From: Escherichia phage vB_EcoM_EP32a
DNA length: 64,000 nt
Strand: one strand, 5' to 3'
Sequence record: OR544954
Shown here piece after piece: positions 8,199-50,453 of this stretch. The stretch's first letter is position 1. Each line of letters begins with the position of its first letter. The translations under genes and the position numbers were made by a program. The notes below the pieces were generated by a model. That model saw only the letters and a list, made by a program, of their open reading frames with translations, ran no database searches and was not told where the DNA came from.

Positions 8199-8693
8199 AT
8201 GAATATCAATACTACGGCTACTTACATCCTGAAAGACGAAAAACAAATCAACTGGTATGGTGCTTCAGTGCGAGCTTATGAAAAGTTTTGTGAAATTTTA
8301 AGTGCCACTCAAGGTAATAGTTTCACTATTGTTAACTTCATCAAACAAGCTGAAGGCCCTTGGTTATTCTTAGAAATTAAAAATTCACACGGTACAATTT
8401 CTACTACCGCCCTTCCAAGCACTGACTTTGAACTGTTGATTGAAGAAGTAGCACCTGTTAAAGACATCTGTATTGATATGGATATCGCTTGTATGTACGG
8501 TACTCTGATTAAGCCTATTGAGCCTACTGATTTGTTGTGTAAAGCTGTTTCAATTCGACGCCCATTCGCAGGTCCAGTAAATGGATGGGTAACTGACCAA
8601 TGGATTGAAGACGGTGTTGAACTTCTGAACGTTGTTCATGCAGGTGATTTTAGTGTAGTTCCACGTAGTGCTGTGGTTAATATCCTTAATTAA
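8199..8693 (+). CDS. hypothetical protein, paralog family member A (164 aa)
   Basis: C-terminal GWVTDQWIEDGVELLNVVHAGDFSVVP shared with the next two ORFs. Confidence 0.6.
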   Translation: MNINTTATYILKDEKQINWYGASVRAYEKFCEILSATQGNSFTIVNFIKQAEGPWLFLEIKNSHGTISTTALPSTDFELLIEEVAPVKDICIDMDIACMYGTLIKPIEPTDLLCKAVSIRRPFAGPVNGWVTDQWIEDGVELLNVVHAGDFSVVPRSAVVNILN

Positions 8694-21911: not shown

Positions 21912-21931
21912 TGCATTTTTCTCACAAAACA

Positions 21932-21960
21932 GTTTACTTTTGCTTCAAACATGATATTAT
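21932..21960 (+). promoter_or_regulatory. T4-type early promoter (GTTTAC-N17-TATTAT), copy 1 of duplicated cassette
   Basis: Part of a ~75-bp direct repeat with 22252-22326. Confidence 0.55.
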
Positions 21961-21999
21961 AGACATATCAAAACAAAACAACCAAATTGGAGAAATAAA

Positions 22000-22215
22000 A
22001 TGTCTAAAATGAAATTAACCCAAAACACAACTACTCGTTTCGGTAAAGTTAAACCTGGCATGAATGCTCCACGTAAAGCACTTGTTGAAGAATTAAATTT
22101 CTTAGAAGTTGAAATCAATTCTTTAGTGGTTCGCGGTTCAAATGGACATCATTTAGAAAAGCTTCGTTCTAAAAAGGCAAAGCTTATTAGCCTTATTAAA
22201 GAAATGAGTTTGTAA
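22000..22215 (+). CDS. hypothetical basic protein (71 aa)
   Basis: ORF behind duplicated promoter/RBS cassette; starts MSK like motA. Confidence 0.5.
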   Translation: MSKMKLTQNTTTRFGKVKPGMNAPRKALVEELNFLEVEINSLVVRGSNGHHLEKLRSKKAKLISLIKEMSL

Positions 22216-22252
22216 ATTTTACCAGGGCTTTTGAAAAAGAGCCCAAAATAAA

Positions 22253-22281
22253 GTTTACTTTTGCTTCAAACATGATATTAT
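22253..22281 (+). promoter_or_regulatory. T4-type early promoter (GTTTAC-N17-TATTAT), copy 2, upstream of motA
   Basis: Near-identical to the cassette at 21932. Confidence 0.55.
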
Positions 22282-22318
22282 AGACCTATCAAAACAAATA
22301 CTAATTTGGAGAAATAAA

Positions 22319-22951
22319 ATGTCTAAAGTTACTTACATCATCAAAGCTTCTGAAAACGCTCTGAATGAAAAAACTGCTGCAATAATGGTTTATATCATTA
22401 AGAACAACTTCACCACTGCTGCCAATGTCCGTGAAGCTCTGGAAGCAGAATACAATGCATCGGTTGTTAACTCTAACATTGGTGTATTGATTAAGAAAGG
22501 TTTAGTCGAAAAATCCGGTGATGGACTTGTAGCAACAGGCGAAGCAATGGATATTATCCAAAAAGCTGCAGACCTCTTTGCTCAAGAAAATGCTCCAGAA
22601 CTTCTTCAGAAACGTAACACTAGAAAAGCACGTGGAGTTACTCCTGAAATGCATGAATTAGCAAACTTTGTTTTTGAAAATATTAAAGATAAAGTTGAAG
22701 TTAAAGAAATTGGTGAAAACCGTAGTAACTTGGAAGTTCGATTTGCAAAACGAGTTCTAGGTATTCGTCAGATCGAAATTCGTCGAGATGGTTCTCTTAG
22801 AATCTTTGCATACAACATGACAGAAACTGAATCAAAGCTGTTTACTTCTCTTGAAAATGATGTTAAGATTAAGATCGGTGGTAAATATACTTACATTGAC
22901 TTCCCTAATGTGTCCAAAGAAATCATTACCCTTGTAACTAACGTACTGTGA
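22319..22951 (+). CDS. motA: middle-transcription activator MotA
   Basis: 210 aa; MSKVTYIIKAS...VVNSNIGVLIKKGLVEKSGDGL...QENAPELL matches recalled T4 MotA. Confidence 0.85.
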   Translation: MSKVTYIIKASENALNEKTAAIMVYIIKNNFTTAANVREALEAEYNASVVNSNIGVLIKKGLVEKSGDGLVATGEAMDIIQKAADLFAQENAPELLQKRNTRKARGVTPEMHELANFVFENIKDKVEVKEIGENRSNLEVRFAKRVLGIRQIEIRRDGSLRIFAYNMTETESKLFTSLENDVKIKIGGKYTYIDFPNVSKEIITLVTNVL

Positions 22952-26321: not shown

Positions 26322-27269
26322 TTATGCTAAACGAACGATATAGTTAAAAGCAACGTTTTTAACTGTGTTTTCTGTATTTCCTGTGGCATTTACAGTTATT
26401 GTGTGTCCATGGGAACCAATTGCAACAGTATGAGAATGAGCACCAATACCTACCGAATGGGTATGAGCGCCAATACCCACAGTATGAGCATGGTTACCCG
26501 TAGCGCTAGTAGTTCCTGACCAACTATGGGTGTGGGCACCGTCTGAAGAAGTTTTGGCCATATTCGACGATGCAGTAGCACCGTTCACGGTTCCAGTGAA
26601 TTTAGCGTCGGCGTTTGCACCTACACTATTATATCCGTCATAGAATATGTTATTGGATATGTCGGCTCGTACCTGAGGACCTGAACGCGCGTGTTGGTGA
26701 GCTCCTGCGGAACTAGTATTACCACTCACTGTATGGTTATGGTTGCCAGTGGTATTACTGGTCTTAGTACCATAATCAAAGCTTGAAGTCGTTTTGCTAC
26801 CGTAATCAAAACTAGACGTGGTCTTAGTACCCAAATCTGTGTTTGATGCACTTGCACTATGGCTATGTGACTTAACACCGTCTGCTTCTGTACTTAATAC
26901 AGCACGCCCAGATGGTTTACCTTTAATCGTTTGCCCACGCATATCAGGCAGAGAGCCGGAAGGATACACCGCAGCTAACTTAGGATACAAGCCAGCATCA
27001 AATGTTTGACCTTCCATTATGGCATAACCTTCAGGAGGTGTATCAGTAGGCCATGGAATCGGAGCACCAATTGGGTAACTCGACACAATATCCGTCTTAA
27101 GGTTATTTATTGTGGTATTCAAGTTAGCAAAGTTGCCAGAACCACCAGTAATATTACCATCAGTACCGAATCATCTTTAGTAAAAAGAGTTCTATCTTTT
27201 AAGTTTATAGCCAATTCACCTTCGGCTAATTTTGCTTCTTTTAAATTGTATCTGTTTTAATGTAGCCAT
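26322..27269 (-). pseudogene. 37: long tail fiber distal subunit gp37 remnant (N-terminal 40 codons plus C-terminal tip; frame-disrupted)
   Basis: ATG at 27269 encodes MATLKQIQFKRSKI then stop; [19 protein letters not shown] in a second frame; C-terminal 266 aa (His-rich GxHxH tip) back in ATG frame after four stops; about 2.1 kb shorter than T4 gene 37. Confidence 0.6.
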
Positions 27270-38808: not shown

Positions 38809-39063
38809 ATGATTTTACGTTTTATTAATTCATATGGCACCACAATTTTTGAAATGAAAAATCCTACCGAACTGGATATCCCTTCGCCGAATAGTGAAAT
38901 CACAGTTAAAGGTGAACGATTCATTTGCTATTCACACGAACGAATTTATGAATATCGTGAATTTTGTGGTGGTTACGGTATAGAAAAAGAACCGTTGGTT
39001 TATTTCGATATCACGGTCTTGACTCCTAAAGAATATGAAGAAATTATTGCTGAGGATAATTAA
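38809..39063 (+). CDS. hypothetical protein (84 aa)
   Basis: ORF between td and nrdA. Confidence 0.5.
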   Translation: MILRFINSYGTTIFEMKNPTELDIPSPNSEITVKGERFICYSHERIYEYREFCGGYGIEKEPLVYFDITVLTPKEYEEIIAEDN

Positions 39064-39150
39064 CGCTTCAGTTTAAAAGTGTATAATAAATTAACGGGAT
39101 AAATACTATCCCGTTTGGAGTAATGTCTATCAACCTATACTGAGGAATAT

Positions 39151-48205: not shown

Positions 48206-49198
48206 ATGTTACCTGTCATCAGAAAACTTATTTCTCCAAAAGAACTGGCTGAGATTATTCCTTTGTCGGAAGCTTACGCATCACAAGTGGCTTCTCATCG
48301 CGAACAAGTTAATTCGATTATGAACGGTGAAGACTCACGCAAACTTATTGTTGTAGGTCCTTGTTCAATTCATGACCCTATTGCTGCTGTTGAATACGGC
48401 AAACGTCTGGCTGAACTTCAAACTCGTCTTCCTAATGTTCTGTTAGTGATGCGCGTTTATTTTGAAAAGCCTCGAACTACCGTAGGTTGGAAAGGTCTTG
48501 TAAATGATCCATATCTTGACGGAAGTTTTGATATGAACCACGGTCTTATAGTTGCACGAACATTGTGTCGTAAACTTCTACGTATGGGACTTCCATTAGC
48601 AACTGAAGTATTAGACCCATTCACGATTAAGTATCTTTCTGGTATTTTCTCATGGGTTGCTATTGGCGCCCGTACGACTGAAAGTCAGACACATCGTGAA
48701 ATTGCTTCAGGTCTACCGATGTGCGTAGGCTTCAAGAACGCAACCAATGGTTCTATTAAAGTAGCTACAGACGCGATGTATAGTGCCGCCTGGCCTCATC
48801 GGTATATGGGTATGGACGTCGATGGTACTGTAGGCATTGTTGAAGCTGAAGGTAATCAGAATACGCATATCGTATTGCGTGGCGGGACCAACGGCCCGAA
48901 CTATCATTCTTCTGATATTCAAGAAGCTTCTAACAAAGCAAGGGCAGTAGGTCTGAATCATTATGTAATGGTTGACTGTAGCCATGCAAACGCTGATGGG
49001 CATTATAGCAATCAAATCGGTATTGGTAAAAATTTAGCAGCTAATGATTTGGTCAAAGGAATTATGATAGAATCGTTCCTACATGAAGGAAATCAAAAAA
49101 TTTCTGATAATATGTCCTATGGCGTTTCCGTTACCGATGCGTGCATCAGTTGGGAACAAACTAAAGAGCTGTTAACTTATATTAATAAGGTTCAATAA
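48206..49198 (+). CDS. 3-deoxy-D-arabino-heptulosonate-7-phosphate (DAHP) synthase, class I (AroG/AroF/AroH-like)
   Basis: 330 aa; motifs LIVVGPCSIHDP, MRVYFEKPRTTVGWKGL, IGARTTESQTHRE, VGFKNATNGS, ILRGG, DCSHANA, ESFLHEGNQ, VTDACISWE align with recalled E. coli AroG incl. metal ligands Cys/His/Glu/Asp; SD TAAGGA. Confidence 0.85.
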   Translation: MLPVIRKLISPKELAEIIPLSEAYASQVASHREQVNSIMNGEDSRKLIVVGPCSIHDPIAAVEYGKRLAELQTRLPNVLLVMRVYFEKPRTTVGWKGLVNDPYLDGSFDMNHGLIVARTLCRKLLRMGLPLATEVLDPFTIKYLSGIFSWVAIGARTTESQTHREIASGLPMCVGFKNATNGSIKVATDAMYSAAWPHRYMGMDVDGTVGIVEAEGNQNTHIVLRGGTNGPNYHSSDIQEASNKARAVGLNHYVMVDCSHANADGHYSNQIGIGKNLAANDLVKGIMIESFLHEGNQKISDNMSYGVSVTDACISWEQTKELLTYINKVQ

Positions 49199-49765
49199 TG
49201 AAAGCTAGCACATACCTTCAGATTGCATATCTGATTTCTCAAGAATCAAAATGTTGTTCATGGAAAGTTGGCGCAGTCATTGAAAAAGATGGGCGCATTA
49301 TTTCTACTGGGTATAACGGCTCTCAACTGTTGCGAACATGCATCTGAAAATGGTTGGTTGAAGAATAAACCAATCCCAGTCATCGTTGCTGGGCATAAAG
49401 AAGGCACTACAGCATTTGGACGGGCCGATAATTTTGTTTTGGCTAAAGAACATCGGGCTGCTCATAGTGCATGGTCTGCCAATAACGAAATCCATGCGGA
49501 ACTGAATGCAATTTTGTTTGCAGCTCGTAAAGGTAATTCTATTGAAGGTGCTACGTTGTATACGACACTTTCTCCATGTCCTGATTGCACTAAAGCTATT
49601 ACACAGTCAGGTATTAAAAAGGTTGTATACGCAGAATTATATGACAGATCTCCTGAAAATTGGGCAGACATTCTAAAACAAGCCGGTATTGAAGTAATTC
49701 AGTACTCTCGTAATAATCTTCGTTCTCTGAATTGGGAACAAATCCGAAACTTTTGTGGTGAATAA
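49198..49765 (+). pseudogene. cd: dCMP deaminase (cd) interrupted by a frameshift
   Basis: ATG 49198 gives MKASTYLQIAYLISQESKCCSWKVGAVIEKDGRIISTGYNGS then stop at 49345; deaminase core (NCCEHA...HAELNAIL...SPCPDC) continues in +1 frame 49268-49765; about 14 nt missing relative to recalled T4 cd. Confidence 0.6.
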
Positions 49766-49766
49766 T

Positions 49767-50063
49767 ATGATTTTAACTGAACAAGAGACTATGGTTCTTC
49801 GTGAACGTATTAAAACTATTCTGTCTGTAGGCGTTCATTGTGTTGTATTTGAAAAGGCTAACGGTGAGGTACGCACTATGTTTGCTTCTCGCGATGAACT
49901 TGAAGTCAAATATGAAAATAACAATCCGGCAACAGAAGTTCGTTATGAACCTCGTGAATCAGTTCGAGCATTCGATACCAAGTTAGGTCAGTGGCGTTCT
50001 TTCCGCCTTGATAAAGTAATTTCGGTTGATGGTACTCCGGTAGAACGTTTGCTTCTTATGTAA
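49767..50063 (+). CDS. hypothetical protein (98 aa)
   Basis: ATG at 49767 right after cd stop. Confidence 0.45.
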   Translation: MILTEQETMVLRERIKTILSVGVHCVVFEKANGEVRTMFASRDELEVKYENNNPATEVRYEPRESVRAFDTKLGQWRSFRLDKVISVDGTPVERLLLM

Positions 50064-50120: not shown

Positions 50121-50453
50121 ATGTCTGAAGTACAACTCCCAATTCGTGCTGTTGGTGAATATGTCATTCTGGTTTCTGAACCCGCTCAAGCAGGTGATGA
50201 AGAAGTTACCGAATCAGGACTTGTGATTGGTAAACGTGTTCAAGGTGAAGTTCCTGAACTATGTGTAGTTCATTCTGTAGGTCCTGATGTTCCTGAAGGT
50301 TTTGTTGAAGTCGGTGATTTGACTCCACTACCAGTTGGACAAATTCGAAATGTTCCACATCCATTTGTGGCTTTGGGACTTAAACAACCTAAAGAAATTA
50401 AACAGAAATTCGTAACATGCCACTATAAAGCTATTCCGTGTCTTTATAAGTGA
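50121..50453 (+). CDS. 31: co-chaperonin gp31 (GroES-like)
   Basis: 110 aa; near-identical to recalled T4 gp31 ([34 protein letters not shown]...). Confidence 0.9.

Follow-up and report, generated by a model that had tools for sequence, protein, structure and literature searches.

A 14-nucleotide gap at a variable patch splits the dCMP deaminase gene in the record of Escherichia phage vB_EcoM_EP32a and may reflect dropout during sequence construction

The dCMP deaminase of phage T4 (Cd, PDB 1VQ2) is a zinc-dependent, hexameric enzyme that dCTP activates and dTTP inhibits. The G(Y/W)N(G/A) motif marks the allosteric dCTP/dTTP site, the T4 enzyme being inactive without dCTP, and the catalytic motif is defined as H-A-E (PMC12088426). 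The cd gene belongs to the 'quasicore' auxiliary genes of nucleotide metabolism, can be circumvented and is dispensable to T4-type phages in some backgrounds (PMC2993671). The classical loss-of-function mutants of T4 cd are laboratory mutants. In the RB69 group, phages AV117, JS09 and F31 carry cd as one continuous 193-codon ORF, at the same locus as the gene described here (DAHP synthase, cd, 31.1, gene 31, rIII) and with 97–98% nucleotide identity to it. F31 Cd, used here as the intact relative, can be matched to T4 Cd position by position from 1 to 193 (E=3.6e-94; about 71% protein identity). The GxNGxPxG...NCC stretch of dCD from cyanophage S-TIM5 (4P9C) aligns with this intact relative as well.

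The DNA analysed here, hereafter the window, is a 64,000-nucleotide stretch of Escherichia phage vB_EcoM_EP32a (record OR544954). The phage is a Mosigvirus of the RB69/JS09 group, a T4-type coliphage. Over a 20-kb stretch around cd the window is 97–98% identical to F31, APCEc01 and MM02, and over 800 nt around the cd lesion it is 95–97% identical to AV117, JS09 and others. No record in the phage collection is identical to the window. The gene order, DAHP synthase, cd, a 31.1-like gene and gene 31, is the same as in annotated relatives. The DAHP synthase gene (48206–49198, + strand; Pfam PF00793, E=2.9e-75; annotated in relatives) is intact and translationally coupled to cd, whose ATG overlaps its stop codon (TAATG). 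Its product is a class I, aroF/aroG-like enzyme of 330 aa, an auxiliary metabolic gene product conserved and annotated in Mosigvirus relatives. The identical protein was found in an NCBI contig (L047) of a 98% relative with an intact cd, and in a Logan contig too short to reach the lesion. Downstream, an intact 31.1-like WYL_2 protein is encoded at 49767–50063 (+ strand), starting 1 nt past the cd stop codon, and gene 31 lies at 50121–50453.

The GYNG, NCC, HAE and PCPDC motifs of T4 Cd are all encoded in the window, but over two frames and without the SP(A/S)GG loop. The frame-0 ORF runs from the ATG at 49198 to a TGA at 49345–49347 and comprises 49 codons, and the +1-frame ORF is open up to the TAA at 49763–49765. 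Instead of a single continuous ORF of about 180–193 codons, the gene is therefore split into 49198–49347 and a +1 ORF ending at 49765. Both pieces match the dCMP_cyt_deam_1 profile (PF00383), the N-terminal piece over profile positions 4–46 (E=8.4e-7) and the C-terminal piece over positions 50–101 (E=1.1e-16). When intact F31 Cd was used as a tblastn query, residues 1–42 matched 49198–49323 in frame 1 with 100% identity, and residues 48–193 matched in frame 2. The second HSP was reported as residues 23–193 from 49265; its first part is a spurious out-of-frame translation, and the genuine match extends from N48 (49325) to 49762.

Codons 1–42 (MKAST...GYNGS; 49198–49323, + strand) are thus written in frame 0 and include the G-Y-N-G allosteric/substrate motif. 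They are followed by an out-of-frame tail of seven codons, QLLRTCI, and the premature TGA (49324–49347, + strand). Codons 48–193 (NCCEH...HAE...PCPDC...FCGE) and the TAA occupy 49325–49765 of the + strand in the +1 frame, and align with T4 Cd through F31 Cd. The HAE motif, which carries the zinc ligand His and the proton-shuttle Glu, is encoded in this frame at about 49490 (EIHAELNAI), as is the zinc-binding P-C-x-x-C motif (SPCPDC). GYNG (codons 38–41) is found only on the 49-aa frame-0 ORF, on a separate polypeptide from the catalytic half. Between GYNG and NCC, the conserved [ST]-P-[AS]-G-[GQ]-x loop, whose place is immediately after the G(Y/W)N(G/A) motif, is absent, codons 43–47 being missing. 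A prior sequence-only reading had identified the gene as cd, noted the change of frame and placed NCC, HAE and PCxxC in the +1 frame, all of which agrees with these alignments. Two details of it need small corrections: the stop it placed at 49345 occupies 49345–49347, and the N-terminal part has 42 authentic codons, not 41, followed by 7 out-of-frame ones. The gene is a standard T4-type zinc-dependent dCMP deaminase gene of Mosigvirus, and as written it is predicted to be unable to encode an active enzyme.

Alignments with relatives place the lesion junction at 49320–49329 (+ strand). Between 49324 and 49325 the window lacks exactly 14 nt, a loss that removes P43-(A/S)44-G45-G46-(V/T)47 after GYNG and before NCC. 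As a result the frame shifts just past GYNGS, a stop codon is met seven codons on, and the half with HAE and PCxxC is left in the +1 frame. The span around the lesion measures 815 nt (816 in one case) in 40 listed relatives and 801 nt in the window, so that the deficit is exactly 14 nt; the sequence-only reading had put it at about 14, relative to T4 cd (GYNGS-PAGGV-NCC), and its size estimate is confirmed. Compared with F31/L047-type alleles the gap is clean and reads GGCTCTC-CTTCAGGTGGTNNN-AACTG, or, with the variable end of the missing patch displayed, GGCTCTC-CTTCAGGTGGT(ACA/GTT)-AACTG. Compared with AV117 and JS09, which are otherwise the nearest alleles, the window shows the 14-nt deletion together with 2 substitutions at most 5 nt from the junction. 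The flanks of the junction are of the AV117/JS09 type, yet the 5 nt adjoining it are of the F31/L047 type. No clear or convincing microhomology was seen at the cd junction. The presumed ancestral allele, in which the window flanks surround an intact patch, had no match in phage records, IMG/VR or metagenomes. With the 14 nt restored, the repaired ORF equals AV117/JS09 Cd at all residues except codons 44 and 47, and differs from these genes by 5–8 synonymous and 0 non-synonymous changes. This lack of pseudogene decay indicates that the lesion is either very recent or not biological.

The lesion was found in none of the relatives listed. Two separate searches gave 40 and 25 listed matches, out of 149 records (about 150) that cover the full query, and all the matches listed keep the 14 nt. 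The comparison with related genomes proposed in the sequence-only reading thus showed intact relatives, with 193 codons and with the gap in none of those listed. Junction searches did not find the cd junction in IMG/VR, JGI metagenomes or GTDB genomes, a similarity search of E. coli RefSeq gave no match to the region around the lesion, and exact-protein look-ups showed both ORF products to be absent from an index of 15 billion proteins. A cd homologue is present in 1398 phage records and was uninterrupted in all 60 that were evenly sampled among them. The motif GYNG[ST]P[AS]G[GQ]xNCC occurs in 41 of 42 IMG/VR T4-like loci, down to 61% protein identity, and the loop is kept in all close relatives.

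Two IMG/VR genomes carry cd genes that also depart from the intact 180–193-codon form, and neither has the 14-nt gap. In the T4-like locus L042 (IMGVR_UViG_2974741249_000001, 1201–1644), cd has lost about 45 residues in frame (GYN/LLKEH). The loop that links the GYNG motif to the LAKEH helix is entirely gone, and the gene could be either a natural loop-less variant or a lesion. In L044 (IMGVR_UViG_2706796796_000001, 1619–1623), one extra G (TAT-G-GAC) near codon 152 shifts the frame of cd, and has the look of a simple error or mutation of a single nucleotide.

The state of the surrounding genes was assessed by comparing the 104 annotated F31 genes with the window. Matches were obtained for 102. 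Of the two unmatched F31 genes, the first is located past the start of the window and the second is an accessory ORF of 101 aa. The latter, a hypothetical ORF adjoining nrdA (144834–145139 of the F31 record), has no counterpart at 39057–39142 of the window, a case of accessory presence/absence. Among the 102 matched genes only cd and gene 37 are broken, the rest being full-length and in one frame. A third gene was flagged at about 2528, where a Ser-rich, low-complexity ORF of 82 aa differs in length from F31 by 15 nt in frame; closer relatives differ by 3 nt. We rejected this difference as a fourth lesion and regard it as a natural in-frame length polymorphism. Every 1-nt indel against F31 falls between genes or is offset a few bases away, and gp56, td, frd and nrdAB are intact, with 97–100% identity. 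That the whole genome SYSTEMATICALLY is erroneous is thus excluded for the 64-kb window. A direct repeat of about 78 nt (about 90% identity; 21931–22008 and 22252–22327) flanks a small ORF (22000–22212) upstream of motA, and F31 has this repeat too.

Gene 37, which encodes the distal long tail fibre, is cut to about 950 nt (26322–27269, − strand), and the 5′ end of this remnant (27170–27269, − strand) carries the lesions that accompany the one in cd. A unique 29-nt deletion at codons ~13–22 shifts the frame, and the listed relatives all keep these 29 nt. In addition, the junction 27170/27171 skips residues 44–744, about 2.1 kb. Both lesions had been described in the sequence-only reading and were recovered by alignment. 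The 2.1-kb junction possibly involves a microhomology of 4 nt, ATTC, provided that its ancestor resembled APCEc01. By established T4 biology, a phage that lacks this distal fibre would not propagate alone or be grown from plaques. As the gene 37 lesions would abolish this fibre, the record is unlikely to be a faithful genome.

The position of the deletions was then compared with the local diversity of the relatives. The 14 nt fall on the short patch with the greatest variability in cd: in six relatives the diversity of the deleted stretch ranks 11–13 of 569 sliding windows, about 4.5 times the gene mean. Codons 41–47 (G-S-P-A/S-G-G-V/T; 49310–49330 of the window) show dense, mostly synonymous differences and at least 5 allele types between near-identical flanks, a variability that probably reflects a run of four-fold degenerate codons. 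In gene 37, the 29 nt are the sole variable patch (rank 1 of 99) within 130 nt of N-terminal sequence that does not otherwise vary, and the 2.1-kb loss starts at the end of the conserved N-terminus of gp37. Hyper-divergent clusters this strong number 11 in the 46.8 kb aligned to F31, one of them being the cd lesion itself; a random deletion would strike such a cluster in less than about 1% of cases. Elsewhere, as in gp34, patches of this kind are kept as substitutions; the gp34 protein of the window gave no match in an exact-protein look-up. The three lesions, namely the 14 nt of cd and the 29 nt and 2.1 kb of gene 37, thus share one divergence-linked signature. This shared signature favours dropout during consensus calling or assembly over independent real mutations.

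We therefore favour, with restrained confidence, the reading that the cd gap is a divergence-linked consensus or assembly dropout and not a mutation of the phage; we infer this bioinformatic cause from the sequence. A short, mismatch-dense patch would have been lost and its conserved flanks joined. Candidate processes are reference-guided mapping in which the reference has diverged, or a consensus called from reads or haplotypes that are mixed or diverged. The real phage would then carry an intact cd of 193 codons. This reading is favoured by the coincidence of the cd and gene 37 deletions with variable patches and by the gene 37-null state, which is not propagable. It is further favoured by the complex cd junction, whose flanks and adjoining bases are of different allele types combined in no record or contig, by the repaired ORF without decay, and by the uniqueness of the lesion among the relatives and databases searched. 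Against it stands the otherwise very clean window, with about 100 intact genes. Moreover, since other hyper-divergent patches were retained, any dropout process was not general. Deletions of 14 nt are rare in the output of short-read de novo assemblers, which also counts against dropout. So does the possible ATTC microhomology at the 2.1-kb junction of gene 37, of a kind typically seen in genuine illegitimate recombination, and so do the dispensability in principle of cd and the occurrence of cd lesions in L042 and L044. The window consists of A, C, G and T only, and an earlier removal of N runs is neither proven nor excluded by this composition. The sequence-only reading had proposed real small deletions or systematic assembly errors; the usual systematic errors do not fit about 100 intact genes, and the artefact is favoured in the sense given by the divergence signature.

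The main competing explanation, less probable in our view but to be taken seriously, is that the sequenced DNA carried a real, recent and strain-specific deletion, so that cd would be a null allele (pseudogene). T4 cd mutants are viable, as known from classical T4 genetics, and dUMP could still be supplied by the gp56 dCTPase/dUTPase and by the host to feed intact Td and Frd, the only expected cost being a shifted dCTP/dTTP balance. The unambiguous sequence within a clean window that retains intact gp56, td, frd and nrdAB is in line with such an allele, as is the place of cd among the quasicore auxiliary genes (PMC2993671). The in-frame 45-aa deletion of L042 and the 1-nt insertion of L044 indicate that cd lesions occur in T4-like genomes of IMG/VR, and both the possible ATTC microhomology at the large gene 37 junction and the retention of hyper-divergent patches elsewhere (gp34) can be added on this side. 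However, the chance that a random deletion strikes a hypervariable patch is below about 1–2%, and the coincidence is repeated at gene 37. The cd junction lacks microhomology and has two extra substitutions abutting it, and the allele is seen nowhere else in the collections searched. If real, the lesion would be null like the classical T4 mutants; unlike them, it co-occurs with lethal lesions in gene 37, so that the genome cannot represent a propagating phage, and the allele occurs in no sequenced relative of those collections. It is very unlikely that the deletions are footprints of imprecise repair at biologically hypervariable sites, for instance if the synonymous-variant patches of cd and of the 5′ end of gene 37 were polymorphic targets of homing endonucleases, other sequence-specific nucleases or defence systems in mixed Mosigvirus infections, the defective genome being maintained by helper co-infection.

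Random errors of an error-prone assembly, such as homopolymer or basecalling noise, would account for more than one broken gene in the window (cd and gene 37). The other matched genes are, however, full-length and in one frame, the 1-nt indels are intergenic or compensated, and lesions of 14 nt, 29 nt and 2.1 kb do not resemble homopolymer slips, which refutes this very unlikely origin for the 64-kb window. Least probable of all is a functional split gene, expressed either by programmed +1 frameshifting or bypass, or as a two-chain deaminase of 49 aa and ~158 aa. The two frames overlap at roughly 49235–49345, so that a shift is geometrically possible, and the +1 frame has an ATG at 49289. This ATG is the sole one of that frame and lacks a convincing Shine-Dalgarno sequence. 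Reading of 49235–49347 revealed neither a slippery nor a shifty motif: re-pairing in +1 is impossible in the stop context AUC-UGA, and the run of five A is not long enough, while its use would garble GYNG. Even a joined product would be without the P-(A/S)-G-G-x loop, and the two-frame arrangement occurs in none of the relatives' matches listed (about 150 cover the query).

Sequence signals that might have directed the removal were also considered. In some alleles both patches carry GCAGGTG/CACCTGC (AarI/BspMI-type), and a 12-bp palindrome, CACCTGCAGGTG, is present in the AV117 allele of the cd patch; about 0.3 occurrences of CCTGCAGG are expected anyway. Motif-directed removal was rejected, nine CACCTGC sites remaining in the window, and the palindrome was likewise rejected as a removal signal. 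The nine sites (for example at 8640, 27862 and 50190) compare with 3.4 expected, and none of 100 shuffles reached nine; this excess may be driven by codon usage (Ala-Gly, GCAGGTG).

The finding is mainly a matter of data quality. From the record as it stands, annotators would label cd as a pseudogene and gene 37 as truncated, and could be led to wrong conclusions on nucleotide metabolism or host range. Lesions that fall on hyper-divergent patches are a fingerprint of consensus or mapping dropout, for which other phage records can be screened. If the lesion is real, it would simply be a naturally occurring null allele, and the enzyme concerned is well known and dispensable.
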